Below, in pieces: positions 1 through 49,900 of a stretch of DNA of 64,000 bases. The stretch lies in NCBI GenBank assembly GCA_030141605.1, contig JAQGDQ010000028.1:434001-498000 (forward strand). The letters are read 5' to 3'. Both the position numbers and the translations under genes were made by a program. The notes under the pieces were generated by a model. The model did no database searches. It was not told the origin of the DNA and saw nothing but the letters and a program-made list of their open reading frames with translations. This stretch comes from Tubiluchus corallicola. Its lineage: Eukaryota > Animalia > Priapulida. The first letter of the stretch is position 1. Each line of letters starts with the position of its first letter.

Positions 1-135
1 CTTTATTGATTAGTCCGACACAGTTTGATTCTCTAATGTCAAACAAAGAAAATAATATCCCATTATCGTATGGGGCTAGCAGGGCGATCGTTATCAGATC
101 CGAACCACAACAATTATGGATGTTGATCAACGTGA

Positions 136-1680
136 GGGAGATTGTTCAGGTTCCAGGGAAAGTACATGTCACAACCCAAAATGTACCAATCAACCAGAAT
201 GTGGGAAGGAACAAATGCTGCTCACCAATCGAGTGCAGAAATACTTGGGAGTATCATGACATCAGGTCAGGTGGTATCGGAAAAATCCGGTCACCCCCTT
301 GTTGGCTACATTCTCAGCCTGGTGGATTCTTGGTTATTTCTGTTATCAGAGTGGCCAAAGTGGAAGAGAATAGATAATGTTGACCTACTAGCTCTAGCAA
401 TCACACCCAGTGATTTCTCCTTCGTTCCATTCCTACCACCTACGTTTTTCTGTTACCATGGCCAACAAGATCGACTGACCCATGGATTAAGCTTCATGTT
501 CTATGTTCTTAAAAACTGTGTTGATGAAACCAATCCTATCCACAAAATTGTGGCACGGCTCCTTTCGGTGAAAACTGTTGCTCCTGAGACTCTACAACTA
601 CTAACCTTAATAAAAGATCCCTGTGCTCTCAATTTTGAGCAACCAATGGCTTTGTCTACTCTATTAAGACAGACAGTACAACAAAAAGTTATTCCCATGG
701 TCAAAAACGACAGAATTAAGATGTATTTAGATATCCTGGAAGAAGATGCTTTTCCAGGAGTGGTTAAGTATTACACTTCTATCGTTCCCTACCCAGCTAG
801 AATTATAAACGCAATTTTTACTTGTACTGTGATGGGTACTGCCATCAACTTCCTTGATTTTTTTGCCCAACAATCAACTTTACTGAATATGCTACAAAAA
901 GAAGACAAACTCAGACTAGAGACTCGGATCAACAAGGTTGAGAGGAATCTGATCAGCAGTGTCCTTAATCGACTCAAGACTCCTCAAAGTAAAAGCTGGG
1001 AAGAATTATTAATAGAATTAAGTGGGAGCTCATCGCTTTGTTCTTATCTGATGGCAGAAGGGTTAAGAGACTCTACATGGGGCTTTAAAATAGTAGATGT
1101 GACTGCCCCTTGTCCCTGGGGTCAACTCTCCCCAATATCAGTCGAGCTAGCTCAAATTAGAAAAGATGTTATTAGTTTAAGATACTCTGATTATCCAGAC
1201 AAAACTGCAGTGGGGCCTTATAGAATGGTCGTAGGAAGTAGGACGAAAGAACGGATCAAGCCTTTAGTAATAGCTCCCAATATCCCAAAGGGGCTGACAA
1301 GAAGGCAATCTGTTGCCATTTTAATAAAACTCCTTTGTTGGATGGCTGACAAGCCTTTAATCGTCAAGCTCATTCAAGATGCACTTTTTGAATTGGGGGC
1401 AACCAATTATGAGGCACTAATTCCTAAGGGTTACACACTATCTCTAGGGTCAACCGCTCATCGACTAGAAGCTGCAGATAGGAAGTCATCGGTCTACTTT
1501 AACCTCAGAGACACAGTTGCCAGCCATATAGTAATTAATACAGATAGAGCGACTCTTTATAGGGGAGAAGGGGCAGACTACACTTTATGTTTCCAAGAGG
1601 TCTTCTGTGCTTTAATGACAATGAATGCTGTATCTAAATATCACCTAGTATCTAACCCTCACCAAGCACTACCAAACTGA
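136..1680 (+). CDS. Endogenous viral element: fragment of a negative-strand RNA virus L protein (Mononegavirales/Jingchuvirales-like), distal RdRp plus PRNTase mRNA-capping domain
   Basis: ORF 142-1680 (512 aa) is colinear with rhabdovirus-type L as I recall it. GRLFRFQG...STRMWEGTN resembles GKIPIFRG...WSRVTCVTN; LIKDPCALN resembles LVEDPTSLN; SIVPYPARII resembles SINPLFPRFL. PRNTase motifs: A LRDSTWG..VDVTAPCP, B GPYRMVVGSRTKE (GxxT), C W in LLCWM, D GSTAHRL (catalytic HR), E DYTLCFQ. Truncated at both ends: no GDN motif C and no methyltransferase domain. Confidence 0.9.
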   Translation, partial: GRLFRFQGKYMSQPKMYQSTRMWEGTNAAHQSSAEILGSIMTSGQVVSEKSGHPLVGYILSLVDSWLFLLSEWPKWKRIDNVDLLALAITPSDFSFVPFLPPTFFCYHGQQDRLTHGLSFMFYVLKNCVDETNPIHKIVARLLSVKTVAPETLQLLTLIKDPCALNFEQPMALSTLLRQTVQQKVIPMVKNDRIKMYLDILEEDAFPGVVKYYTSIVPYPARIINAIFTCTVMGTAINFLDFFAQQSTLLNMLQKEDKLRLETRINKVERNLISSVLNRLKTPQSKSWEELLIELSGSSSLCSYLMAEGLRDSTWGFKIVDVTAPCPWGQLSPISVELAQIRKDVISLRYSDYPDKTAVGPYRMVVGSRTKERIKPLVIAPNIPKGLTRRQSVAILIKLLCWMADKPLIVKLIQDALFELGATNYEALIPKGYTLSLGSTAHRLEAADRKSSVYFNLRDTVASHIVINTDRATLYRGEGADYTLCFQEVFCALMTMNAVSKYHLVSNPHQALPN

Positions 1681-1855
1681 CCAGGTCAGTTACTCTTGTC
1701 CAGCTCCAAGTGATTTACATGCGGTCAACACAAAAAGAGAAGCACTGAAAAATGTATCAGCCGTTTTTGAACCTCTTGGATGGATTAGTCCTTTATTAGT
1801 CGAAGCAAAGAGATTCATAGCAACATTATGGAAAGAACATGTCGATTGGGACACT

Positions 1856-4240
1856 GTGTTCACCCAAGAGCAGCAAGTTCAATGGGAAAATGTTGCAAAC
1901 ACCTTATCATCAATTTACAGTCTGAGGATTCCCAGATACACTGAAACAGGTGATTTTAGCAAAGTAGATATTGTGTCATTCAGTGACAGCTCTTCATGGT
2001 GTTATGGTGCAGTATCTTACTTGAGATTTGTTCAGCCTGATGGATCAGGCATGGTAAAGCTGATTTATGCGAAGACTAGGCTTGCACCCCCACGCCAAAT
2101 TTCAGTTCCGAGACTGGAGTTACTTGGAATACTACTAGCAGTTCGATGCACCAAGTTTTTGTTGACACATCTTCAATTGAATATCAACGAAGTACACATC
2201 TTTAGTGATAGTAAATGTGCATTATTTTGGGTGCTAAATGGATGCTCCTTGAAAACGTTTGTGAGGAACAGAGTGGAAGAGATCAGGTCTCTTCAGAACG
2301 CTACATTTCACTTTGTGTCAACAGAAGAAAACCCAGCAGACTTGGCTTCTCGTGGTGTAAAGGACTCCGAGACCTTAATGAATAGCATATGGTTCAACCC
2401 TCCAGCATGGTTGAAAGAACCCAAAGAATACTGGCCACAATCAGATATACCAGTTACTTCTGCCGAGGATCAGCAACAGATAGATTCTGAAATGGGAGAA
2501 TGCGAAGTACCAGTTGTCTTGACAATTAGTGAGCAACCCAATGAGTCACTAGTTGATTTAACGAGGTACTCGAGTTTTGAGAAGGCAGTACGAGTAACGG
2601 CCTATGTTATGAGAGCTTTAGGTAGATGGAAACACACTGAGAATGATGTGCAAACAGGCCTTATGGCATCTGAGCTAGTAAAAGCAGAAATAATTCTAAT
2701 TAAGCAAGTCCAACGTCAACACTTCAGCAAAGAGATCAGAGACTTACAGTCTAATAAAAACAACTGCTTAGTACAGCAACTAGGTCTGTATTTGGATTCT
2801 GAAAACCTGTTGAGATGTAATGGCAGGATTCAACATTCGGATTTTACATATGCTAGCACAAATCCAGCTCTCGTGCCACGAAAAGATCATGCCACTCGAC
2901 TAATTATTCAGAGAGTACATGAGCAACAGCTCCATAGTGGAGTATCACAGACATTAGCACAGCTGAGATGTACATACTGGGTACTCAAAGGTCGTGCGGC
3001 AGTACAAGAAGTAATTCAAGGATGTTTAATCTGTAGACGTGCAAGTGGTCCACCATACAAAGCACCACCCATGCCGGGACTACCACCAGCAAGAGTTAAC
3101 AGAAACTTGGTATTTAGTCAAATTGGATTAGATATGCTAGGTCCATTTTGGATTAAAAACTTCACTTCATTGTCAGAAAAACATGAAGTCAAAAAGGTTT
3201 GGGCTTGCGTGTTTACGTGTATGTGCACCAGAGCCGTGCACATAGAGCTTACAGAAGACCTTAGTACCGAGGAGTTTTTGTCGTGTTTCCGCAGATTTGC
3301 AGCAAGAAGATGTTATCCTTCGAAGGTCTTGAGTGACAATGCAGCACAGTTCAAACTAACAAAAACTGTCCTGGATAGAGCGTGGTCTCAAACTCTCCAA
3401 AGCCCTGATGTTTTAGATTATGCAGCTCAGCATCGTATCAGTTGGGAGAACATTGTAGAGCTAGCTCCCTGGTTTGGAGGTTTCTATGAAAGGATGGTTG
3501 CTATGATAAAGTCAGCTCTTAAAAAATCAACAGGCCGACGTCTTCTGACTCGAACTCAATTGGTAACGCTGCTGTGTGAAATCGAAGGCGTGATCAATTC
3601 TCGACCTCTCTGTTACGTAGATCAGGATATCAATTCAATACGCGTCATAACCCCAGCTGATTTCATATCATTGAAAGGTGACCTTGGCACTTTATATTTA
3701 AAAGATGATGACGAGTACAAGCCGAATCAGCCAGACTCTGCGGACAAGGTTTTGCAATGCTGGAAAAGAGGACAGATCATCTTGAATAAGTTTTGGGACA
3801 TCTGGAGGAAGGAGTATGTATTGTCACTGAGGGAGCGCTATAACAAACCAATCAAGCAATCAAGGTCAGCTCTAAATTCAATGCCTAAAATAGGTGACGT
3901 AGTTCTGGTTCAGGATGATCTTCCAAGGAGTCAATGGAGAGTTGGGAGGATACTTTCTCTAAAGCATAGCCATGATGAGATGTGCAGATCAGTTTCTGTG
4001 AGGCTACCTTCAGGCAATATCATCAATCGTTCTATTACCCAGCTTTACCCCCTTGAACTGCCAGCAACACAGACCAGTATTACAGATGCCAAGCAGTACA
4101 AAACAGATAACACTACACGGCACAAACAAATTAACACACCACAAATAGTTATAGAGCCCACTAATAAGCGATCAAAAAGAAAGGCAGCTGCGAAAGCTGG
4201 TGACAAAATTCGAGGGTGGGTCGAGGACCTAAATTTGTAG
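1856..4240 (+). CDS. Bel/Pao pol polyprotein fragment (RNase H + integrase), no internal stops
   Basis: 794-aa ORF in the track. The same frame extends upstream to 1649 without a start codon, so this is a 5'-truncated pol. Confidence 0.9.
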   Translation: MFTQEQQVQWENVANTLSSIYSLRIPRYTETGDFSKVDIVSFSDSSSWCYGAVSYLRFVQPDGSGMVKLIYAKTRLAPPRQISVPRLELLGILLAVRCTKFLLTHLQLNINEVHIFSDSKCALFWVLNGCSLKTFVRNRVEEIRSLQNATFHFVSTEENPADLASRGVKDSETLMNSIWFNPPAWLKEPKEYWPQSDIPVTSAEDQQQIDSEMGECEVPVVLTISEQPNESLVDLTRYSSFEKAVRVTAYVMRALGRWKHTENDVQTGLMASELVKAEIILIKQVQRQHFSKEIRDLQSNKNNCLVQQLGLYLDSENLLRCNGRIQHSDFTYASTNPALVPRKDHATRLIIQRVHEQQLHSGVSQTLAQLRCTYWVLKGRAAVQEVIQGCLICRRASGPPYKAPPMPGLPPARVNRNLVFSQIGLDMLGPFWIKNFTSLSEKHEVKKVWACVFTCMCTRAVHIELTEDLSTEEFLSCFRRFAARRCYPSKVLSDNAAQFKLTKTVLDRAWSQTLQSPDVLDYAAQHRISWENIVELAPWFGGFYERMVAMIKSALKKSTGRRLLTRTQLVTLLCEIEGVINSRPLCYVDQDINSIRVITPADFISLKGDLGTLYLKDDDEYKPNQPDSADKVLQCWKRGQIILNKFWDIWRKEYVLSLRERYNKPIKQSRSALNSMPKIGDVVLVQDDLPRSQWRVGRILSLKHSHDEMCRSVSVRLPSGNIINRSITQLYPLELPATQTSITDAKQYKTDNTTRHKQINTPQIVIEPTNKRSKRKAAAKAGDKIRGWVEDLNL

Positions 4241-4273
4241 GTAGGCTGTTCATGGCATCTTCCCTCGGGGGAG

Positions 4274-4558
4274 TGTGCTGACGCAATCAGAATGATCACG
4301 TGACCAGTGATTGTTCGGCGCGCACGAGTCTGCAGAAGACGAGTGGTACAAGAGCGGACATGTTGTTTAGATTACTAGTGTCGTTAGCGTCTTTAGAAAT
4401 TGTAAAAAGTTTCGTTAGCGTCTTTGTTTGTGTAATACAGAAGATATCAATATACAAATTTTTGTGACAAGTATTTACTGTTTTACGATTCTCGATTATA
4501 CAAGTAAATTATAGATAATTAGACTGAAACTTGGGCGAAGTGACAGGGCATCGCCACA
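4274..4558 (+). repeat. Putative 3' LTR of the Bel/Pao element (~285 bp)
   Basis: Follows polypurine tract GGGGGAG (4267-4273). Begins TGTGCTGACGC and ends GCATCGCCACA (TG...CA with an imperfect terminal inverted repeat). Internal direct repeat TCGTTAGCGTCTTT at 4381 and 4412. No partner 5' LTR in the window, so the right boundary is inferred. Confidence 0.7.
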
Positions 4559-5611
4559 ACTGCACCTAGAAAAAGCAAACTAGATTTGCCACTGTGATTC
4601 AGGCAAAATAAGAAATTTCTATTGCATTTTGCTCAGTTGTTTATGTGTTGCTTTAAAGACGAATATTCAAAGAGTATATCGCAGAATATGCAAGTTAAAG
4701 CAAAGTATGGCTAACATAATGACAGCCCAGAGAATTTTACTTGTGAAAACTTGACTAGTTAAATCTGAAATTACTTGCTGAGAATATGGAATTATTGTAA
4801 CTGTTCACCCAAATTTGACTTTATATGTAACTGACACAAAAGAAGAAACATAAATACCAGTGAAACTGATTCGCAAAGCTACTTTTCTCGTACTTTTCAC
4901 TGGAGATGGCAAACCATGAACTAGCCAAGTTCGTCACACCTCATGAGCACTCTAAATACAATGAATAAACAACGTTTGAATTAAATGAAAAGTCAGGCAT
5001 TTAGCTCATAATTGAAAGTTCTGTGACTAAAATTTTGGTTCTCGCAGATTTCTATTGTTTTAGATGCTTGCACCACTTTATACCACACTACTCTCAGTCT
5101 TTTCTATCATTAATAAATTATCAGTGCTGAAACTGTAAAATTTGGCAAGGGTATACAAATGGGAGATAATATTGCAGGCGAGTATGAATCAGGGAATAGT
5201 AACATAATGGAAATTTTATATAGATTGTTCCAAGGACAGTGGAAAGAAACTATAACACTATGAACAATTTGAAACTTGGCTGATTTTCTTAAAATAAACA
5301 TTCTACTAATTATGTATAATGTATTTACACATTTTGTCAACTAAATAGATGACACTGTTGTGCAATAATGCCAGATTACACTATTCTTTCATTAAATGAA
5401 ACCAATATTCAATTACATTTAGCAATTCACTGATACTTAAATTTGTGTGAAAATAATGAAAATGAAAATGTGGTTATGGTCATGAGTCACATAAAAATGT
5501 AAATGGATGTTCACTGCGTACTATTCCAATCACTTTATCAGCAAATGTGATTGTCTATAACGTTTTAATTTGTCTAACGTTAACTGATCAATGCCTTCGC
5601 AACAGCAAGTA

Positions 5612-5779
5612 CAGTCAAGTTTATACCGTCTACTTTGGACTGCAGAAAAGTTGGCGTTAGAGTGAGTTGGCATTATAACTAGGCGCATTAATACATACAT
5701 ATCTATGCAAATGTAGACATTTGTTTTGCCGGAAATTTGGGCGTTAAACAAGTTGGCATTATAAATGGAGGTTTGACTG
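5612..5779. mobile_element. Tc1/mariner-pogo type MITE
   Basis: Termini TA|CAGTCAA...TTGACTG. A related copy lies in reverse orientation at ~59125-59331. Confidence 0.6.
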
Positions 5780-5821
5780 TGTTCTAATACTGTGCACAGG
5801 CATTCACATAACCAATCTATA

Positions 5822-7094
5822 CAGTATGATCCACTTACAACGAGCCTGTTATAACGAGCTCTGGTTATTAAGAGTAAATTCTAAAGTCCCATGAAATCTT
5901 AGAATAATATATGAAATATTTAATATATTTAAACCTTGCTTACAACGAGTTCCGATATTATAGATTTTTCTTATTATGAGGGAATTTTACCACCTCCTGA
6001 TTGTACTTCACCTAAATATAACTTTCTAAGACAATAGGCAAATGAGTACCATTCATCACAACCAAAAAAGATCACCAGGCCCTGGGAAGATTAGTTTGTC
6101 GCATAAAATGATGTGTATCAAGTACAGCCCATATGAAGACGTACTGGTGGGCCTGCAGCTACTTGCGCTGTTGTAATTGTAACTCAAAGTCAGAATGAAG
6201 TGAGAACGATGATTCATACAACAGTAGAAGAACCAGTTTGTCAATACGTTAGTGTGAATGATGCAGTTGAAGCCATTGCTAACATCAACAATTTTTTGTC
6301 TTCACCAGCAACTGACAATGAGGAGTTCTCATGCCTTTCAAAAACCTGACAGCTCCTTGAATGAAGCTCTTTAATGTGCAATTTAATGAGAAGCAGGCAA
6401 AAATAACCGAACTTTTCAAAAAATAAACTTGCAAAATAAATGATTCATCGACTTTTCAAAGTTTAGTTTTTAATAAAAACACTGTTTTAAAAAATGCAAT
6501 AATTTTACATTTCCTAACACTTGGCTAGCCAGATTGTACACTTAGTTATTAGCTGACGTAAGCTCATGTTGAAATGTTCATTAGGCCCTAAGTATTAGCT
6601 CACCGCTGTTTAAATAAAACCAGAGATTTTTGCATCAGCGCTGCATACACTTAAAGTGATAGCCCTGTTTTTCACCCATGAAAGCGTCTTGCACAGATGT
6701 CAAAAAACTATACTGCAACACCCACGTAAAACACACTCAGCTATAGGCAAATATCACAATGAATCACAGCAGTGGCAACTAAGAAAAGAACTTATGTGGC
6801 TGCTTTATGCAGGAATTTATTGCGTAAAATACTGGCTTAATCCTAGAAATAGCAGAGTTTGAATACTATAAGTTTACTTTTTTGTTATAAAATAGTTGCT
6901 GAACAGTGGAACTCACTACAAAACTTCTGCCACTCCCAAAAAGAAGCGTTCTTTTTATTGCTTCATCATCTGCCTCATGGGCTTCGCTTCCATCTTGTAC
7001 TCACTCAGACAGTTGACATCAGCTATAACGAGTCCCAGTTATAGACAGCAAATTTTTGCAGTTCCTTGCAACTCATTATAAGTGAAGTATACTG
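5822..7094 (+). mobile_element. Non-autonomous pogo/Tigger-like DNA transposon
   Basis: TA on both flanks. Imperfect TIRs CAGTATGATCCACTTACAACGAG / CTCATTATAAGTGAAGTATACTG. Internal remnant EKQAKITELFKK* (~6388-6426) resembles the KQxxITDFF C-terminus of pogo-family transposases. Confidence 0.7.
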
Positions 7095-7281: not shown

Positions 7282-22116
<14,835 letters not shown>

Positions 22117-27300: not shown

Positions 27301-28166
27301 GAATGGGAATTCGCTCCCAAAAAAACCACTGTGGGTGGGAATATGCTCTGTTGTACTGCTATAGATATATCCAGTGTTACATAAGGAATAAAGAGGTTAA
27401 ACAGTAATAAGCACCTGTTTGAATGAGGACTTGGTGATTATCCTGTTTGAAAAAATTGGTGCCTGGCTCTAGGGCCGGACTATGGCCTTTTGGGGCCCTA
27501 TAATATCATAACCACTCTAACTCTAAAGTACATGTACTGTGGTGCTACATAGTGCTATTAATACACACAGTATGCCCTCAAAAGCAAACTGAGTTTGAAA
27601 GGTAAATTACCTTTGTTCGTGCAGCTACTATAGAAAATCAGTACGTTTAGGTCTGTTTTTTATTGGTCAGCTTAAAATGACCGACTTTCATTGGTGATGA
27701 TGAAATAACTTAAAAAAGTCGTTGAAGCCTTATCTGATTACTAAATATTACTAATTTGACATTGATGTAAACTGTAGCCAGAACTGTAGATGCAAATTGT
27801 ATAGATACCAATTATTTATATGCATGTATGTATATGTGTGTGTGTGTGTGTGCGTGCGTGCGTGCATATATGTATTATAAAGTACAGTAGTACCTCTGTT
27901 TTCGACAATAATTCGTTCCTAAAAAGTATTTGAAAACCGATTTGTACAAGTACGGAGACGTTGACAACGGAGGTATGACTGTAATTGGCAAATCTTGTTT
28001 CAGAAACTGCTAAACTGGGAAGAAATGTTGTTTTTTTTGCAAACTTGGTGACATTGATCATTGCCATAATAGTATATGAATGCATTTATCTAATGTGTGA
28101 TAGCTCAACTAACTAAATACGGAGTGCCACAATGAGCTCTTTTTTACTCGTAGGAGGAGCAAAGAT

Positions 28167-29546
28167 ATGGAAGAGAACAGCAATCGGAAAAGTGTGTGTG
28201 TTCTGGTGCTTGGTGACCTGGGACATAGCCCACGCATGCAGTACCATGCCACAAGTCTTACAAGTGAAGGCTTTGATGTAGATTTCATAGCATACGGTGG
28301 ATCGAGGCCGCACAAGAACATCTTGGAGAATAGACACATTAGGGTGCATTTAATGCCAGACTTACCAAACTTCAGTAACTGGATGCCTAGGTTGTTAAGC
28401 TATGTCGCAAAAACTGTCTGGCAAAGTTTTATCCTTTTCTTCTTTCTTTTGTTATTGAAACGGCCCTCACATATCCTAGTGCAAAATCCACCCGCCATTC
28501 CGAGTCTTGCGGTGGCTTGGATTGTCTCATTGGTAAAGTGGTGCCACCTGGTTATTGACTGGCATAATTATGGCTATACAATTCTTTCCATGACACTCAG
28601 TGATACGCATCCTCTGGTTCTGTTTTCACACTGGTACGAAGGCTTATTTGGGCGTATGGCTTCCGCAAATCTGTGTGTTAGCCGAGCTATGCAAAGTGAC
28701 CTGTATCAACGATGGAATGTCAACGCCACTGTAGTGTATGATCGACCTGCAGAAATATTTCAGACGATAACCACAGAAGAAAAACACATTTTGTTTAAGC
28801 GTCTCAGTAACGAATATCCTGTATTCTCAGATACCAAAAACTTAGAAGATATAGAACAGCCTGGTACCACTCTGGAAGAAAAGGATCAAAATGATGGAAT
28901 GGCAAATTATAAGAAAGAAGATGTTACGGTGTTTACAAAAAAGGTTCCAATGGGTGAAATAGAAATGAGGGAAGGAAGACCAGCTTTGCTTGTCAGTAGC
29001 ACCAGCTGGACAGAAGATGAAGATTTCTCTTTGTTGCTTATGGCACTGGAACTTTATGACAAACAAGCTGACACAAGAGATAATAACCTACCTGAGATTG
29101 TCTGTGTTATAACAGGTAAGGGTCCTCTCAAAAGCTATTACACTGATTTGATCAGGAACAAGTCTTTCAGTCACATCCAGTTTTGCCTGCCGTGGTTGAC
29201 GGCCGAGGATTACCCAAAGGTCCTTGCTGCTGCCGACCTAGGTGTCTGCTTACATACATCTTCTAGTGGTCTAGACCTTCCAATGAAAGTGGTGGACATG
29301 TTTGGTTGTGGCTTGCCAGTGTGTGCTGTTAATTTTAATTGCGTGCAAGAATTAGTGATTAACGGACAGAATGGTCTGGTCTTTGAAACTGATGAAGACC
29401 TGGCAAAACACTTGCAGAACCTTTTTGCAAACTTCTCTTCACAACCGAGTCAGTGTCTGCAGTTGTTCAGAGACAATTTACAGGTGTATCAATGTCTTCG
29501 ATGGCATGCTGCTTGGAAAACATCTGTTCTTCCTATTTTTCAATAA
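28167..29546 (+). CDS. ALG1: Chitobiosyldiphosphodolichol beta-1,4-mannosyltransferase, single coding exon, 459 aa
   Basis: Motifs VLVLGDLGHSPRMQYHA, LVQNPPAIP, IDWHNYGY, VSSTSWTEDEDFS, ITGKGP, DLGVCLHTSSSGLDLPMKVVDMFGCGLPVCA. Splice-acceptor-like TTTTTTACTCGTAG ends at 28153. AATAAA at 29849-29854. Confidence 0.97.
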   Translation: MEENSNRKSVCVLVLGDLGHSPRMQYHATSLTSEGFDVDFIAYGGSRPHKNILENRHIRVHLMPDLPNFSNWMPRLLSYVAKTVWQSFILFFFLLLLKRPSHILVQNPPAIPSLAVAWIVSLVKWCHLVIDWHNYGYTILSMTLSDTHPLVLFSHWYEGLFGRMASANLCVSRAMQSDLYQRWNVNATVVYDRPAEIFQTITTEEKHILFKRLSNEYPVFSDTKNLEDIEQPGTTLEEKDQNDGMANYKKEDVTVFTKKVPMGEIEMREGRPALLVSSTSWTEDEDFSLLLMALELYDKQADTRDNNLPEIVCVITGKGPLKSYYTDLIRNKSFSHIQFCLPWLTAEDYPKVLAAADLGVCLHTSSSGLDLPMKVVDMFGCGLPVCAVNFNCVQELVINGQNGLVFETDEDLAKHLQNLFANFSSQPSQCLQLFRDNLQVYQCLRWHAAWKTSVLPIFQ

Positions 29547-37900: not shown

Positions 37901-40900
37901 TAAACTTTAAAGCTATTATGTACAATATTTTGACTCAAATGTTTAAAACAATATTTCTTCTCCCACAACTTTTTGCACACTAGAAAAAAATACGAGAAAG
38001 GCTTTCCTAAGCATCTAATAATGTTGGGAGCCCAGGAGAACTCTTTTAAAGAGTAAAAGTGCTGTATGAAAGGCAATTCTGCTGTCAGATTTGGTGTTAA
38101 CATAGGCACTTAATAATGGTGGAATGTGAAAAAATCATCCAAGGTCGGGGCTCCAGGTCCTCCTGAGAGAGTCTAGAGCAATCCCTCGATCAGACCTTAA
38201 GCTAAGATGACCCTATTTTGGACATCTTCAGGTTGGAATGTTTGCATATAGACTCTTCCTACAGAAAATGAGATAATTATATAGCAGCTCCATCTAAATT
38301 GCTCCGTTTCAACTAAATTAAAAATAGTAGATAAAGGTTCAATATAAAACCAAAAAAATAATTAAGAGAAATATTTAATATAGTACATTTGTAAATACAT
38401 TGGCCGCTGTTTATTTTGTAATTAAGTACAAAATAGAGAAAAACTTAATTAAGTGGAAACACCTCTATAGTACGTCTGTAAACATACTAGCCTATATACT
38501 ATTTTGGTTTTTATAAGGCAGCTCTAAGCTCGCAGCCAGTGTCTAACTCTGGTGATGTCATGCCAACTGAAAACCAAGATGATGCTTTTGCAGCAAAAAT
38601 TAACAAGTTTAACTGGCCCTCCTGGTTAAAACAAAACTAATGGAGGTAAAACAAAGCTTTAAATCAGTAACAGTTAAACAGTTTTAAACTGTCCTGCTTT
38701 ACAATTAATTTAAACCTTAGATTTTCTTTTAAAGTAATCATGTCTGCTACACAATGTACAATGACAGGCAAATACTCACCATCATATCATTCGGCATGAT
38801 TTGACCGACATGGCATCCAACACCAAAATGAAGCTGGTGATGCCTGGTACATGGTGTACCAAGACAGATAAACTCGTATCATCAGCATATATCATACCAT
38901 TCAGTATGGCTTCAGCAATATTACCTCCAACACCATATTAAACTAATATTACTTACACTATGTTATTAAATGTGCAAAGACAAGCAAAGTAAATGTTGCT
39001 GATTTACGTTTGAAAAACATCATTTCTTTTTTTAGGTTAATTCGCGAATTCGAGACTTGGAAGTCAATTTAATGTGCAAAGCAGAGACAACCAGTGATCT
39101 AGTAGATATAAGCCGGTATGGCGCTCGTCCAAAGGAATTTCTTTACATCTATGAGTTAGATAACTCGCCATATGAAGAGGTATTTAGCTTACCTAACAAT
39201 GGATTAACATGTACTTAGTGCTTGGCTTGCATGATTTGTTTAGTAGTAAAATGATAAAGAATAATTTTTTGGATTGCTGATATAGTAACTAATAAAATTG
39301 AAAATTCAAGCAATTTTTACTTTTAGTTCAAAAGACATTATTTATAACCATTTAAACACCAACAGTGCAAGGCACTGTAAAACTGCGAACACTTTAACTT
39401 TTTAAACTGCTGTACTGCTAACACAATAAAATTAGAGTATTGGAATTTTAGGATTATATTAATGTTTTATAACATTTGGCTGTAAATGTGCTTGCACATA
39501 TTTCTAAGCTCATAGATAGTTGGTTTTGTTTTTTAAAGATTTAATTTTCTTTATTTGTTCAGCAACTGTCTCATAAAGTCTCATAATTTTTTTTTGAATA
39601 ATCTGTGTTTTCTGTATTGAATTTGACTTCTTATGCTTATCGGCAGATTTTATTGTACTTGGAAAAGAACATAAGATTTCTGGAGGAAGCAAAATGCACA
39701 CTAAAAAAGCCATACGAGGAGAATGACGTAATCGATGATCTAATCATTCCGAAAACTGTGCTAACGGAAACCAAATATATTTTGATCAACATGGGACCAT
39801 GGTGTGCTTGTGAAGTGGCTCGGTGGTTTATGCGAGATTTAGACAAGATATTTAAACGATTTGCATTTGTAGAAATTAACAAACTATTCATGCAGTTCTC
39901 ACAAACTGTCCTGCGGGTTGTCTATAAAATGTGCCATGACAATTTCGACATGGATTGTGAGAATCTGCTATCTCTGACGACGCCAAAAGTGAAGCGCTTG
40001 GTGGAACTAATTCGTGACTTTCGTCCTCCCAATGAGCCGTCACGGGAAGAGCCTCTCCGACCATTGAAAAATGATGATGCTGAGTCAATTTGCGGAATTA
40101 TTTTTGTGGAGCGACGTTCAGTTGCAAAAACATTGAATAACTTTTTCTGTGAATTGGCCAGACGCTCTGAATCTCTGAACTATCTAAGGTGTGAATTCGT
40201 TGTCGGTCACGGTACGCATGCACAAAGTAATGAGTCTGTGATGAAGTTTAAGCAGCAAGAAAGTGTCCTGAAACGGTTTAGAAATCGCGAGACAAACCTT
40301 CTGATTGCTACCAGTGTGGTAGAAGAGGGCATAGATGTTCCACAGTGCAATATGGTGGCAAGGTTTGATTTGCCAACTAACTATCGCTCGTATATACAAT
40401 CTAGAGGACGCGCACGCAAAGCCGGTGCAAGTTACCTGATGATAGTTTCACAATGGGACAAGGACAGATTTCAAGCAGATCTCACAAATTATCACAAAAC
40501 TGAAGAGGTACAGTTGTTTATGGAGTTATTTTACAGAAGATTTGTTTACTGTTGATTTAGGTACAGTAAGTCCATCTTAACGACTTTCTGTTTAGTGAGG
40601 TACGTTTCATTTTAATGAAAATTTTTTACTTTGCTCAAAGCCAAATTTTATTTTATCTACAAGTTTTTAGCTAATTTGATGCATTAAAACAGTACATATT
40701 GTGTAATTCTATCCTAAAACGCACTAGTAACGTAAACAGTACAATTATCCTATGTATGTTTTTGCTTCCCAACTGACTACTAAATGCTAGCTGTTTGTAT
40801 TAAGTCAGACCTGGGAACAAACTTTATGGGAGAAATTTTGCCTGCAACCTGTGGCTGTAGCTACCAGGCAGTCTAGATAAGATTCCCCCAAGGTCGCCCC

Positions 40901-43900
40901 AGTGCTATGACATGACTTAAAGTTAACAAAAGAGAAACTGCTAGCTAGGTATTGGCAAGTAAGATTATTTAGGTGTTTCAAACAAGCAGAAAGAAATTAA
41001 TCGGTAGAAATGTGAATAAATCTCATAAAACGTTTGATTTATATGATTTAAGCAGCAATGACATGTGCCTCCGGCATGTTTCTCAATTCTTTTACATTAC
41101 TTTCTATGGAAGTCTTGGCTTCGTTTAACGACGTTTCACTTAACATTACGTTTTACTGGAATGCATTAGCATCGTTAAGAGAGGACTTTCTGTACTTTTT
41201 GGGAAAGATTTTCACATTACACAAATCACCTGATTGAAGGTCAGGTATTGTAGCTGGCAATGTGGCTGATATATAAAATATCGGTAGCAGTCGTAACATT
41301 GTTTGTATATCTGTTTGTTGCTGACCATCATTGTCATTTTTATATAGCTAGTTGTTGGTTTTCAGCATTATTCAATTAGCAATTTACAAATCAATAATTA
41401 CTGCCTGATTATAATTAGAATTTCAAAATATTCATTACTAATGAGTTACACAATCAGTTTATGTGACAATGACTCTGTTTAGGTTTTACTAAGTCGATGT
41501 CTTCAGCGAGATATGCCACAAGAAGAGGAGATGGAAGCGGCTTGGCTTGATGAAATTTTGCCACCCTATATGCCAGTGAAGGGTGAAGGAAATCCAAGAG
41601 TTACGATGAGTTCCGCCATTTCTTTAGTTAACAGGCAAGTCGGGTAACTGCTTGTGCGTTTAGTTTATACAGGGCAGCTAGGCTGCATGGTAATTAGTCT
41701 GTCAACTTGATGACAATGGTTGATGGGTTGTGATAGCAAACTGGGTAGGTGTCGTTATTGAATAGGCTTAGTTATTAAAAAGTCTCGACCTGGTTAGTGA
41801 ATAGACGGGTATCTACTGTAGAAAGTACTTTTGGGAGATTCGTTTGCTGCACTGCATCTGGTTATGCAAAATGTCGTTGCTAAATGTCATTACTGTTTGA
41901 AATGTTTCACTTTTTCATCACCTTATTTCACACTCTTTCTAGCTTTATAAAAATTATACATTGCTGTTGCCCTAAGAAAGTGGCAATTTTTTTAGTTTGC
42001 AAATTTTCACACTCAGGTACTGCGCTCGACTGCCTAGTGATGCATTTACACATTTAACACCATGTTGGAAGATGTATGAAATACCATGTATGGAAGATCC
42101 AGAAAAAGCTCGCTACAAGTGTGACCTAATGTTGCCGATTAATTCACCAGTCAAGCAAGTCATTGAGGTAAAACTCTTTTTTTAGTGTTGGTTAAGAATC
42201 ATATTTTGTGGTTATAACTGAACTTTTTTCAGGATTTATATGAAGTTTAAAATTAGGATGTTAGGGTTCATCACATAGTACACTGCAATTATTATAATGC
42301 TAGGTTTCATGAATTTTGTGAGAAATTTTATGCGATTGTGTCCAACAAACATGACTAGGTCCAAAACAATATCTAATTAATATTAACAGACTTCTCTCTC
42401 CTTAATATACTTTCACACTGGTTGGCTACCTATAAGTGAAGTTGTCTACGACCAAAACAGTATGGAATAATCTGGCTGATTAACTGATGGCTGGTTGGCT
42501 GGCTGACTGACTGACTGATTGACTTACTAACTTACTAAGTGAGCTGACTAAGTAACTGGCTAACAGTCAGACTGACTGACTGGCTGGCAGGCTGGCTTCC
42601 TGGCTGCTGACCGAGCGACCGACCAACTAATTAAGTAATTGACTGACCAACCAACAGTAGCACATTGATGTGCTGAGCAAAATGTTTATTTTCTTAACAG
42701 GGTAAAGAAATGCCTAGAAAACGGTATGCTAAAATGGCAGTAGCATTGCGTACCTGTGAGATACTGCATAAGGAGGGTGAACTTGATCACCATCTCCTTC
42801 CAGTTGGAAAAGAGGCGATGAAGTGGGAGCAAGAGGAGGAGATGTACGAAGAAGTGCCAGAAGGGATGCCTCGCGCAGGGACGACAAAACGACGTCAGTA
42901 TTATTATAAAGAGGTAAGATAAGAAGCTGACATACTGACAGAGCAGCATCTTATACAATGATCCATCGGATTTTCGGTAGTAAAGCAACAGTCATAAGCA
43001 GTACATAAATGCATATGGGCCGTGAGTTTATTTTTATGCAACGGAAATTATCTACTTTAAAAGAAAATTTAAATGAAAAGACCGTTAGCTTTGGTTGTTT
43101 TATGAGAGAATTTATAGATGGAAAATAATTTACCATTTTCAAGTTTGTTTTCATTAATTTAGTTACCTTCTTATCTAGCCTCTATACCGATTATCACAGC
43201 CGTACCATTTAAAACTCAACCTACATTTAAGCAAGATTTCCCTAGCTATTTTGGTCTTGCTTTTAAAAATGTAGTTTTTAGTTTTAAGTGTCATGAATCT
43301 GACAAACTAACAATCAGTTTAGATGTCTTACAAAAAGATAACTACATAATCAAATACATGAAATTAATTTGTCTCTAAAGCTATTTCGTCCTCGTTTTCC
43401 TTGAACTTTATTTTCTCTAATAAGATTGGCTATTTCAGGTGGCGGATTCACTAAAGGACTGTTATCCACAGGTGGACTCTCCTGGTTTTCTTTACGTCAT
43501 TAGAATGAAACTTTCTCAGCCGATATCTGCAGAGCAGAATGTACGTCGCAGAGAAGTTTATCATCCAGAAGCCAGTACGCGATGCTTCGGAATTCTCGCT
43601 CGCAACAAACTGCCACAGGTTTGAATCTGCTTACAAAAATAACATATATATTTATAATTTTGTAGTAACCATTGATAACTATTGAATTACAACTTGCACA
43701 AGCATGCCGTTCACTATATGCATTAAGTACCACATCGAAATTAAGATGAATATTAGAACTATGTTTATATGATTTTAGGTACCTGTTGTGCTTATAAGTA
43801 AGGAGGGCTATTAATTTTCTTTCACTTGATTAATTTAGCTTGCAGGTGTAAATCATGGTGGGCAATGCACGTCATAATAAAACGAAATTGTCTGCATAAC

Positions 43901-46900
43901 TGTTAAAATTTAGCGACTAACTTTGGTATGATGTAAAATACAGCTTTCATGCAAGATTCATACCTTTCACCATACCCACATTACTGTCTCCACATGTGCT
44001 AGAGTGAATACTGATTAAGCTTCTTGATGAATGTAGGGTGTAAAATTATAGAGGCGCATACTTTTATGAAATGGTTACTCAGGTAACTCGTCTTTGCAGC
44101 TTCCAGAGTTTCCGGTGTATACACGGTCGGGAGAAGTTACCATTTCTGTAAACTTGTTGAATGGTTTACTGGTGCACTCGGCTGACGCCTTGAAGAAGTT
44201 GGAGCTCTTTCATGCTTTCACATTTAGCTCCGTGTTACGGTTGGACAAACCACCGATGTCGTTTGATGCTGGCCACACATGCGAGCACATTGCTAGCTAC
44301 TTCATTGTACCTCTTAACACTGGTAGGTGCTGCTTGTTTAACTATGATCAACTCAAAGGCTTATATAAACCCAACAGACATAGAAGTCTTTTAATGCATT
44401 GTTATGATTATGCAAATAATTCATAGTTATTAAACAACATTATTAAACAAAAGAGACTTATAAATTAAATAAATTGTCTTTTTCTGCAGAATTTTGAACG
44501 ATGGAAACACGTTCACAATAAGTTTATAATGAAATGAATTTTCGTAATGAGAATGGGACTTTATGTTGTAAAAGCTTATATTATAGTGAGGGTTTAGTTT
44601 GACCTTAATTACTTTCTGGCTTTCAAGTAACTTTTAGAGATTAACAAATCTGTTTACAGCATGGGTTACCTTCATCCTGATACTTTTGCAGTTACAGTAA
44701 ATGACCAAATTTTGGTGAAACTAATTTGTTTTTTTCTTCATGCATTTGTGTCTCATTCTGCAGTTTTAATTTTGGTCAAATTATAGCTGCCACAAGAAGC
44801 AATGCAACAAATTGGTTAAATGTGAACAATTCCCATTTACATCATTTGCAACTTTAAGAGCCAAATTTTTGAAAAGTTCCTCTAATTTTCATATACACAT
44901 ACTACTACTGCACTATAGTTATAAATGAAAGTTTTAATTACAAGATTAAACTAAGCGTTAAACAGTTTGAGTCAGTAAATTTGACAATCCTTTAATTTAA
45001 CTTTATTTAAAGTTCCTTTACAATAAATGGGGAGTAATTTCATTTTTACATTTCATTTGTTTGCTGTGATGATAAAGCAAGTTTTAATGGAGCTAAATTC
45101 AAATTGTTGTTCATTTTTTTGTTTGTAACCGGTTCTAGATCTTTGAGTTTTCAATAAAGATTTTAAATGGCAACTATTGAGTGATAGTTATGTGATGATG
45201 TGACTGCGAAAGTTACACAAGGTTTTACTGTAGCGTTATTTTTATGAAAATTTATTGATAACAGTCATATCCCTTTAGACCACCGATACCTAACATTTAC
45301 TTGTTTATAAGCTATTGTACATGATAGCCATAGTACAAATTACGGTATTTTTGCTTATGTGTTTTTATGCATACAGTTAGGCACACTGCAAACCAGTGTG
45401 CAGCATTCACTGGCTGGATTACATTGATGGCTGTGGCAAGACCAACACATAACTCATTATTAAAAATTGTTTTCTGACAAGAGGTGCTGAGCAGTTATGG
45501 AATTCTTAATTAGGTGTTAGCTTAGCGATTGGTCAGTCATTTACTTGTGAACATTTAACATCTAACAAAGCAGTTAAATAATTAAGTAATTTATATTGTA
45601 TTTAGAAGTAGCAAACAGATATTGTTTAGGTAACGATTTGAAGTGGTAAATGTTACGTTGGCATTTTATACTGAGGGGTAATGAGTTCCACAGGTTAGGT
45701 CCACTACCACTAATGAAATGTTTTGCAGTATTGGTTCTACACTAACAGACTTGGTAGTCATTATATCTAGTATTAAGTGGTTTGACATTCTTAATTACAG
45801 GACTTTTGAAGAATGTAGGGAATAGTGCAGTTAAATTTTAACAATTCACCAACACCAAGTATTGTTTCACTTTTCTTAGTTTCTGGGTTTATAGGTTTAC
45901 TATATTTACCATATTTACTCTGTACGTTTGTACTTTCAATAAGAAAAGTTATTGATTAAACTTTTGTTAACTTGTCACTTGTATTTAGCTTTTTAAATAT
46001 CTTTCTTTTGAGATGTGTTATTAGTTATTATTGTTTCATTTCATGTTTCACTTTGATAAACTGGTGTTCTTGATTTAAAATACCCAGGCCTTAACCTACA
46101 TAACAAATTATTTAAATCTTATCTTGGATTTAGTATCATTCGCACGATCTTCCGAACACCTGGTGTCAATAACTGTCTTTTTTGTAAAATAGGTGCAAAT
46201 GGATTGTACGAGATAGACTGGCCATTTGTGGACATCATTAATGAGTACAGCGGATGCCAAGTTGACAAGTCTACAGCTTGTAATGTCGAGTTTAAATTTA
46301 TGGCAGAGAGGTACGAAAATGCAGTTGTGTCGCCTTCGTATCGCAATCTTGATCAGCCACAGTATTTCTATGTCGCAGAAATAAAACATGACATGAATCC
46401 GATGAGCCAATTCCCTTCAGAAAATTTTTCCACATTTGCTGAGTATTTTCAAAAGAAGTACGAGATCGAAATCACGAACACGAAGCAGCCCCTGCTAGAC
46501 GTTGACCACACATCGGCCAGATTGAATCTGCTGACCCCAAGGTATGACTTCTGTTTATTTATGGTTTGTACCTGTGAAACGTGAAATCACAGGTGTAGCT
46601 AATGAGGGAACAAGAAGAGCAACCGCTCCCTCTAGCACACTTTTCAAATTTGGCGCCTTTTCAACAATTTTTTAGTTCACTTGTATGGTTGCTGAATGAT
46701 CCTTTAGTCGGCTCAAACAGGTCCTATCTTTGTTCTACAATGGGCGAGGATAGATTCCTCCTTTGAAAGATTTAGCCACTGAGGTGAATTCCAATAAAGC
46801 TACAGATTATTTTGCTAAAATGAAGCTTAGCCAAAAGTGAATGTTGTAGTTTCTTCATGATACAGTTTTCACAATGCTTTAGTTTGTTTTCATTTTACAT

Positions 46901-49900
46901 TTAAAATTAAGTTAATTAAGTAACACACATGTTTTTGTTATGTTTTGAGATTTATGAACTTAATGTAAAACTTCTTGTTTTGTTTTAATTTTAAATAACA
47001 AAAATAACATTTATGTACTTCCTTTAAAACTGTATCTTCCTCATGATTTGAACACAAAATTAAAATGCATAATCAATGTATGTATGTGCCTTTTCTTAAT
47101 TTCTTGCTCCCCCTAACTTTAGAACATGGCTGCGCCACTGTGTGAAATGATTGGGTAGCTAACCATGAGTCCCAAATATGATGAAAAATTCTTCACTGCA
47201 AATTTGTTTACTATAGATGTAATTATTTGTCAAAAAACACTGGTCATGATGCTGAAAGGCACTTTTCCTAAGTCCAAGACAGGTTTATGAAATTGATAAA
47301 ATGATCGAAATTTATAAAAAGGCATGCTGCTTGTATTTAACTTTATAAAATGTTTAGGATTACGTAGATTTTCAATTTTGCCTTTATTTTCTTTGCTCAG
47401 TGATGGCTATTAGTGAGTCGTTGAAACATTGCTTTTTTATAGTAAAATGACTTTGTATAATTCATCTATATAAATAATTTCTTCACTTTATTATGACACG
47501 ATCTGCCATTTTGTATTTTCTGGCAGGTATTTAAATAGAAAAGGTATGACCTTACCTGCGGGAGAGAGCAAAAAAACTGCCAAAGACGACTTACACAAAA
47601 AGCAACTGTTAGTGCCAGAACTCTGCGATGTTCATCCGTTTCCCGCTCCGTTGTGGAGGAAGGCCGTTTGCCTTCCATGCATACTGTACCGGATGAATTG
47701 CCTCCTTCTGGCCGAGTTCCTGCGGGTGAAGGTGGCCCAGGAAGCCAATATTGGACTTGTGAATTTGCCATATGGGTTCCGTTACTCTAAGTTGGATTTT
47801 GGTTGGCAGACGACAGAGTCGAAAGAAGAGCTTTCATCGTTGGAGGAGGAAGAAACTGTGGAAGAGGATGATGTGCAATGCGGGGAGGAGTCAAATCTCG
47901 TAACAGAGGTATTCTTCAAGCATGTTGTTTTTTTTATAGCCATTGGTTCTTAAACTTTGCACTGACCATATACTGGAATGTATTTAACCCGAGCAATGGT
48001 TTTTAAATTATTAGACAGGTGACTTTATTTTCCAGCAATCTTTTTGTTTGCCGCAGCACATTTTGGTTGCAAGTACGAACATCACTTGACAACCAAATCA
48101 CATTGCATTATCATCAATTGCTCAACTGTGGAATTTGTAATTTGTAATTTTGAAATTTATTGTCCACTTCAGCATTACATTATCGCATTGTAACTATATA
48201 TTAAATCAATTGCATGTTTTACATTTCAATTCAATGTAATCATAATAGTTATAAAAGAACTATATTAATATAGTTACTAACTACATAATAATTTATCAAC
48301 AGGAAAAATATGCTGCATGGTGGTCAGGAAGCAAAGCTTGTAAGACCACCATGAAAAGTGGAGAAAAAAATACTTAACAAGAGAAAAAAATAAGAGAACA
48401 GAGAATAGTTAAGATAAAATAATAGACAAAAATAGAGAAAAAGAGAAGAGAAATTAAATAGAAAGTAGTTCAAAGGAAGCTTGTTATGAATAGAGATGCA
48501 AAGTGGTAGCACGATCTACATAAGCTATACTGCATAAACCACACTGGCACTCTGGATGTTTTTTATCTGTATTAGTTCACAAGTTGTACAATAAAGTTGA
48601 AATGCCTTTAAAGAATTCTATAAAGCTAGGATGAACAATTGACTTCTTAGACAGATGTAGAAACTTTTCTTTCCTTTTTCCACTGTGTTGGACCTCCCTA
48701 AAGAAGCTGTTTGATAAGTGTCAATCTAACATTTGTCTGAATCATATGTTTTTTTTTCCTAATCTGTCACTGAGTCAAGGTTCTAGTTAAGGTTCAAGCC
48801 CAATGATATCACGAATTAATCTAAGTAAATTATTTAAAGTACATCACTTGTCATAATTACATTTACGTTTACCTGTAAGGAAATACTCTTGTGCGGTTAA
48901 ACAAATCTGAAATATTTTCATTTTTTTAGGACCTCTGCAATGATCTTGAGGAAAATGACGATTTCATGCAAGATTACATTTTACAAGATGTGATGAGAAA
49001 CACAGCTAGAATTCAGAAATTAACAAAAGCTCAACTAGAAGCCATATTAGAGGTAGATCTAATGTATAAAGATCAAGAAAAAAATGGCCCTGAAAATACG
49101 GACTTGTTTGAAACTGACTCAACTGCTGATGATACATTAGATGTCTGTGATGATTTTGTTCTTTCTCAGCCTGTTGCAGTAAAAGAGGTGCTCACCGAAG
49201 ATGTTTCCAAGGGCCCCGGATTCGGAGAAGCTCTTCTAGCCAAACCAGCAGAACTAAAAGATGAAGAGATACCCGCACTGCGAGTATTTGATGCTAAGTT
49301 TGACCTTGAAACCCTCCCAGGTCCCAGCCCATGTATGATCTTGCAAGCTTTAACAATGAGCAATGCCAATGATGGTATAAACCTGGAACGTTTGGAAATG
49401 ATTGGTGATTCATTTTTGAAGCAAGCCATCACCGTCTACCTGTATAGTAACTATTCTTCTGTTAACGAGGGAAAGCTTTCGTACGCTCGTAGCAAACAGG
49501 TGAGTAATTTGAATTTGTACCGGCTGGGCAAGAAGAAAAATCTTGGAAACATCATAGTTGCCACAAAATTCGAGCCCACTGATAACTGGCTTCCGCCCGG
49601 ATTTATTATTCCGGACATCGATCACATTAAAGCGGAACCTAGCAATTCATATGAGATTCAGTGGCAGAATCAACAGGAAGAGCTGAAAGGGAAGACAAAA
49701 GCAGAGAAGCACATTCCTGTTCAGGAAGACGACTGCAAGGGCAAAGAAGATGGGGACAAAAATAATGAAGACAGGACAAATGAAGAGGTACGTGTCCTTT
49801 TCTTCTTGGTGGAAATTAAGCACCAACAGTCTAAAAAATTTTTAGCATGAACAAACGAGAATAATTTGGTAGTGGGGAATAGCCGAATTGCTACAGTGTA

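Follow-up and report, generated by a model that had tools for sequence, protein, structure and literature searches.

Viral and retrotransposon sequences are reportedly joined in hybrids of lymphocytic choriomeningitis virus and intracisternal A-particle elements (LCMV-IAP), and several further systems resemble the locus described here, a 64,000-nucleotide stretch of DNA from the priapulid Tubiluchus corallicola (assembly GCA_030141605.1, contig JAQGDQ010000028.1, positions 434,001 to 498,000 of the forward strand; the whole of it is called the window below) in which a fragment of a Mononegavirales polymerase (L) gene abuts the 3' half of a Bel/Pao retrotransposon pol gene. Endogenous viral elements (EVEs) of Aedes lie beside Gypsy and Pao elements and include negative-strand fragments co-oriented with Pao, duplicated and rearranged copies being common (10.1101/127498; PMC7448346), and a twin at least 98% alike exists for 46% and 71% of Aedes elements (PMC6580184). 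Chimeric complementary DNA (cDNA) and circles made of virus and LTR (long terminal repeat) retrotransposons in infected Drosophila cells contain discontinuous viral pieces joined to retrotransposon coding sequence (PMC5857290). Anakin is a Pao-family element that recombined with a negative-strand virus gene, the chuvirus glycoprotein (PMC7642597). STORM, a totivirus-like array in Scheffersomyces yeasts, is RNA-virus sequence that was tandemly duplicated after integration, and its description notes that tandem arrays can arise at non-retroviral paleoviral loci (PMC13756089).

The priapulid locus differs from each of them. Unlike the Aedes EVEs, it has a base-exact break inside pol, a parent family in the same genome, and a near-identical 2.2-kb unit whose depth is about 12-16 times that of the flank, and its virus is only 25% like the best relative. 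The Drosophila-cell chimeras are described as transient and somatic, some with the virus in opposite orientation (PMC5857290), whereas here the sequence lies in an assembled chromosome, next to a host flank, and is amplified. Anakin keeps all of its domains and spreads by retrotransposition (PMC7642597); in contrast, the viral gene here is a polymerase and not an envelope, the viral piece replaces the 5' half of the element including the reverse transcriptase (RT), and the multiplied unit stops at 1584 and contains no pol. STORM comprises four old, diverged and expressed coding genes (PMC13756089), whereas the putative array here would be young, near-identical, truncated and mosaic, and would abut a retrotransposon break. 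Each ingredient has precedent. Among the papers listed by searches of an open-access library, which lacks most subscription titles, none describes in its title or abstract opening a young, near-identical, multi-kilobase mononegavirus L array ending at a mapped Bel/Pao pol break.

The viral frame runs without a stop on the + strand from 136 to 1680 (514 aa). It matches PF00946, the Mononegavirales RNA-dependent RNA polymerase (RdRp; E = 1.5e-10, profile positions 798-1063 of 1068, the last quarter), and then PF14318, the mRNA-capping domain (E = 1.1e-13, positions 1-207 of 241), both with scores over the curated cut-offs. The L identity that the first-pass annotation had proposed from the letters is thereby borne out; the profile search did not come back empty. 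All ten significant or near-significant matches of the frame in a PDB search (10/10) are L proteins, and GxxT, HR and FQ motifs can be placed in it. HMMER found 232 relatives at E ≤ 0.001, the best a berhavirus at 25% identity, and none at E ≤ 1e-30; berha-, nyami-, tapwo-, orino-, hexarto-, lispi-, xinmo- and bornaviruses were named among the 30 relatives looked up. Word-based protein searches and scans of viral and metagenome contigs returned no relative of the frame. In a quick tree of 31 rows, two of them probably mis-cut, the fragment forms the longest branch (2.19), is sister to a hexartovirus clade (Shimodaira-Hasegawa-like approximate likelihood ratio test, SH-aLRT, 96) and falls outside the nyamivirus-like group. 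Judged by its sequence, the source appears to be a deep-branching negative-strand RNA virus, which may or may not nest within Nyamiviridae or Artoviridae.

L homology in the window starts at base 136 and reaches 1620-1665, pairwise alignments extending to residues 495-510. Positions 1585-1665 fit the L profile at colinear columns, a fit equalled by 1 of 200 shuffles, and are therefore real viral sequence and not an overlap made by the assembler. The catalytic GDN is absent from the visible viral part; in 35/35 aligned relatives it lies upstream of the point at which homology in the window starts. A single-sequence AlphaFold prediction, with a predicted local distance difference test score (pLDDT) of 32.6, was not used, and an Rfam search of window positions 1-5000 gave no match.

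The locus was compared with contigs from sequencing runs, of which four, from two studies, contain the stretch; no RNA run was listed among those carrying it. Two runs, X1 and X2, are from one sample, which may be the assembly's own, and X3 is from the second study. X5, another sample labelled as the same species, is thin, covers neither 1-2106 nor the flank at 4681-5382 and was not used as evidence of absence. In the three informative runs (3/3), sibling Bel/Pao contigs agree with the window from 1666 onward and carry other letters before it, which by hand translation encode K-V-L-G-x-x-W, presumably the motif that ends the Bel/Pao RT. The departure of the siblings exactly at 1666 into this motif fixes the breakpoint and indicates that an RT-bearing parent family is present in the same genome. 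The first-pass annotation was thus right that the junction is clean and sits where the RT ends, and a few bases off in placing it at about 1670. As it had also noted, the two parts lie on the same strand with no spacer or poly(A) between them in the sequence, both frames (136-1680 and 1649-4240) are free of stops, and the viral stop codon falls within retroelement sequence, 12 nt inside the Bel/Pao part. Being out of phase, the viral and pol frames would not yield a fusion protein; the direct fusion that had been claimed holds for adjoining DNA and not for protein. The break is internal to pol and lacks the LTR end that an ordinary integration leaves behind. An imperfect 18-bp tandem pair (78%) at 1630-1665 ends exactly at the break and may reflect chance or slippage.

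The join 1665/1666 itself is as assembled, the data compared here being contigs and not raw reads. Positions 1585-1665 are uncovered by contigs and the bin 1601-1664 has depth 0 in 3/3 runs, which is uninformative either way. The expected bridge across the junction is about 141 letters at single-locus depth between deep repeats, and graph simplification can drop such a bridge; the records were also filtered. The contigs come from Logan, which uses a SPAdes-like graph simplification (PMC12424806).

The Bel/Pao frame on the + strand is stop-free from 1649 to 4240 (863 aa), 858 codons of it in the element itself. It matches PF05380, PF17921 and PF18701, in agreement with the Bel/Pao identity assigned earlier. 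No RT family is among its four Pfam matches and the RT is not present in the window, so the earlier observation that the RT is missing while RNase H, integrase, polypurine tract (PPT) and 3' LTR remain holds (Table 1). PF05380, the HHCC integrase and DUF5641 stand in the Bel/Pao order of RT, RNase H and integrase, and the catalytic motifs of pol were located in the frame; a PDB search with the pol frame gave no match. The pol half is about 99% like sibling copies, and by its sequence the element appears to be a young Bel/Pao retrotransposon with an intact 3' half. The window contains no second LTR copy; ACTGC, the first bases after the LTR, is a candidate target-site duplication. Unique-flank contigs start at 4530 and 4533, fitting a repeat end near 4559-4562; they keep 29 and 26 LTR letters, fewer than our 31-letter rule requires, and were not counted as bridging. 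Deep sibling LTR contigs in X2 and X3 have about 31 extra letters at 4428-4436, which points to a family with LTR subtypes.

Table 1. Coordinates of the viral, retrotransposon and flanking features in the window
Feature	Position	Strand	Evidence and remarks
Segment of unassigned origin within the repeat unit, not colinear L	1..135	.	Contigs, depth, profile nulls
Mononegavirales L fragment: C-terminal part of RdRp and most of the capping (polyribonucleotidyltransferase, PRNTase) domain	136..1584	+	L share of the 2,204-bp unit; Pfam, relatives, depth
Final 81 bp of L, beyond the repeat unit, linking the last unit to Bel/Pao	1585..1665	+	L-profile match
Virus-Bel/Pao breakpoint, within the Trp codon of the RT-end motif	1665..1666	+	Sibling contigs, 3/3 runs
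3' half of Bel/Pao pol: RT connection, RNase H, HHCC, integrase core, DUF5641	1666..4240	+	Open to the stop codon; Pfam
Polypurine-tract-like end directly 5' of the LTR	4262..4273	+	Sequence; role suggested by position
3' LTR, TG...CA	4274..4558	+	7/10 terminal bases complementary
Unique host flank, single-locus depth reference	4559..5616	.	One contig per run, 0 differences

The viral sequence is present at far greater depth than its flank. Viral contigs have depths of 124-150 in X1, 2,750-3,155 in X2 and 108.6 in X3, against 7.9-9.8, 172-203 and 7.4-11.4 for the flank contigs; the pol contigs in X2, at about 555-1,250, are shallower than the viral ones. One X3 contig of 2,234 letters (record 17) covers 551-1584, continues through 620 other letters and then runs from 1 to 580, joining 1584 back to 1. 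Its two ends overlap by 30 letters, and this is how circular contigs are marked in Logan (PMC12424806). In X1 and X2, loose ends mark this same exit at 1584. A multi-copy unit of 2,204 bp, which the first-pass annotation had missed, exists in which 1584 is joined back to the unit's own start; it consists of about 755 bp of unassigned sequence and 1,449 bp of L, and its length is not a multiple of 3. An 8-nt repeat, chosen post hoc, occurs to either side of the unit joint, with a probability of about 0.004 by chance, and fits a misaligned jump. A 7-nt match between the unit start and sibling Bel/Pao across the break was weighed as a candidate for the 5' entry point and is probably due to chance, because contigs end 49 and 80 letters past 1584, where 53 was predicted.

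The copies of the unit collapse into one contig in X3, and the window copy differs from the deep viral contigs at 2 of 1,584 places. Pol differs from the sibling contigs at 20 or more of 2,575 places, counted from 40 of 334 table rows; 9 of these 20 differences are synonymous and 11 are not (neutral 26%, p = 0.07). Set against each other, the two rates make the amplification or homogenisation of the array look younger than the split of the element from its siblings. The unit likely forms a head-to-tail array of roughly a dozen near-identical copies, of which the window holds the last. Its amplification appears to be recent or homogenised, the copies being nearly identical.

Positions 1-135, which together with the 620 unseen letters make up the 755 bp of unassigned sequence, share contigs and depth with the L part, continuously over 135/136 in 3/3 runs. 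They do not match a profile of the conserved L stretch that follows GDN, at least 106 of 200 shuffles equalling them in each of six frames, nor a full-length L profile, which is weak on pieces of 46 residues (controls score 2.8-22 bits). A frameshifted L at 3-134, with the shift near 135, was rejected; given the weakness of the full-length profile, a distant viral origin may still apply. Because 1-135 does not match the L stretch expected there, a further junction lies near 135/136 and the repeat unit is a mosaic. The unbroken contigs suggest that nothing nearly identical to 1-135 exists elsewhere in the genome as its source, and it may be another piece of the same virus. The ratio of observed to expected CpG is 1.2 in 1-135 and 0.35 in the L part (a small sample), and frame 3 has no stop between bases 3 and 377.

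The genome contains a second L element. A further contig matches the window at 329-363 and has L-like sequence on both sides (3/3 runs). In the 30 letters before its match, counted by hand, 20 of 30 bases are shared with the window but 8 of 9 codons encode the same residue. Such mostly synonymous differences indicate that it derives from another virus within one lineage. The second element lies in X3 on a contig of 2,049 letters with a depth of 88.8 and is multi-copy; by rough estimate it reaches no more than 0.29-0.36 times the depth of the first element in one of the samples and no more than 0.82 times in the second.

Our preferred account of the locus is capture of viral sequence by template switching, followed by amplification in place of an internal 2,204-bp segment, and we give the whole chain a probability of about one half. 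Minus-strand synthesis would have copied the LTR end, integrase and RNase H and then departed from the element RNA where the RT region ends; the Bel/Pao RT would have continued along viral plus-sense RNA, and at least one more jump would have given the 135/136 junction. The hybrid DNA would then have been integrated in the germ line. One duplication followed by unequal exchange would have expanded the 2,204-bp segment after integration, with the final 81 viral bases and the half retroelement left out of the array. The window also contains host flank and host genes beside the insert. Chimeras of discontinuous viral pieces and LTR retrotransposons arise in infected insect cells (PMC5857290), and template switching has been proposed for EVEs co-oriented with Pao elements (10.1101/127498). 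By its sequence, the window copy would be unable to make a working polymerase or to transpose alone. Any function would likely be that of a dosage-amplified template for antiviral small RNAs.

Several points weigh against this account. The first-pass annotation had proposed to use a related copy to place the break and to test for microhomology; the siblings placed the break, and to the left of it they share no homology with the window. The 5' side of the insert (5' LTR, gag, primer-binding site and target-site duplication) lies outside the window, so that capture inside one element is what we infer. For these reasons the template-switch origin proposed earlier stands as the best reading and falls short of proof. 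The shared strand of virus and element would arise by chance in 50% of cases had the two entered separately. X3 may be from the same animal as the other sample, so that the presence of the sequence in DNA contigs of two studies possibly reflects one animal; the fixed state named by the first-pass annotation is conjectural. The virus/flank ratios of 15 in X1 (12.6-19), 16 in X2 (13.6-18) and 12 in X3 (9.5-15) are ratios of contig depth, not copy number. A closed contig looks alike for a tandem array and a circle, and is silent on whether the array adjoins this locus. Part of the pol differences may be lineage divergence and not age.

In the main alternative, virus and Bel/Pao would have entered separately, with a later deletion or repair event removing the 5' half of the element and the 3' part of the virus and joining what was left, and the array would be as above. 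The missing homology left of the break and the unseen 5' side both favour such a history, as does the finding that EVE clusters are often rearranged or duplicated beside Gypsy and Pao elements (PMC7448346) and that the enriched neighbours of EVEs in ticks are non-LTR elements (PMC6580184). We consider it somewhat unlikely, since virus and element share a strand, the pol is open over 858 codons and about 99% sibling-like, leaving little time for a second event, and the mosaic viral part fits a jumping RT. That the join is an assembly chimera of two repeats is quite improbable: both sides are multi-copy and the join is seen in the assembly alone, but the break lies 81 bases past the repeat unit, within continuing L homology, and the two sides have no shared overlap by which an assembler could merge them.

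The multi-copy state also admits other accounts. The deep 2,204-bp unit might represent extrachromosomal circles, either viral cDNA or extrachromosomal circular DNA (eccDNA), or a remote array, with a single copy in the window. The two places at which the window copy departs from the deep contigs can be read as the mark of a separate locus; on the other hand, tandem duplications form beside the sequence that they copy, and it is common for copies at an edge to differ. The X3 contig is closed without a shown entry or exit branch, and infected insects hold circular viral DNA (PMC5857290), but the same letters at similar depth ratios in two studies and the lack of a replication function in the visible 1,584 bp leave this alternative improbable, and an array is preferred to a circle on the grounds of that agreement and of where tandem duplications form. 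It is very improbable that a non-autonomous, virus-bearing Bel/Pao element was spread by retrotransposition in trans, as the first-pass annotation had suggested: the deep viral contigs turn back at 1584 and do not enter pol, pol contigs are shallower than viral ones, and an element with an array of 25-35 kb would be far above the usual packaging size. These facts set aside what the intact 3' LTR and PPT, the RT-bearing siblings and the known capture of a chuvirus glycoprotein by Pao elements (PMC7642597) would otherwise recommend.

The route by which RNA-virus sequence enters animal germ lines has mostly been judged from proximity to LTR elements, whereas the break described here is base-exact. 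With the parent family in the same genome, the upstream end of the insert can decide between template switching and later deletion. In addition, two representatives of a mononegavirus lineage not described before are on record here. A young, high-copy viral polymerase array, together with an amplified relative, makes selection on EVE dosage, as a template for antiviral small RNAs, testable in a non-model invertebrate; a neutral array would illustrate known processes with unusual clarity. A bolder idea is that Bel/Pao RT repeatedly captured sequence from one lineage of negative-strand viruses, and that the captures then became young tandem arrays differing in copy number from one individual to another; they would act, outside insects, as a satellite-like antiviral memory that can be tuned. 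The array might even stem directly from rolling-circle reverse transcription of a circular or defective viral RNA. It draws on the second, diverged L fragment being multi-copy as well and differing in relative depth between samples, and we regard this bolder reading as unlikely.

Animal host DNA makes up the remainder of the window. An ALG1-like glycosyltransferase gene with the appearance of a single exon lies at 28113-29546, and a multi-exon Dicer gene (helicase, PAZ and RNase III) at about 39600-49850. The best named match of the ALG1-like protein is 56% (Priapulus), and in a quick tree of 38 of 120 matches it falls outside the sampled insect, tick, mollusc, echinoderm and vertebrate groups. 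The two genes are 24-45 kb from the viral insert, and the neighbourhood of Dicer is probably a coincidence. Directly after the unique flank, 5617-7000 contains very high-copy short repeats, with a depth of about 11,400 in X2 at 5617-5850, and a long CT/CTCA microsatellite at about 8500-8900 yields spurious low-complexity frames.

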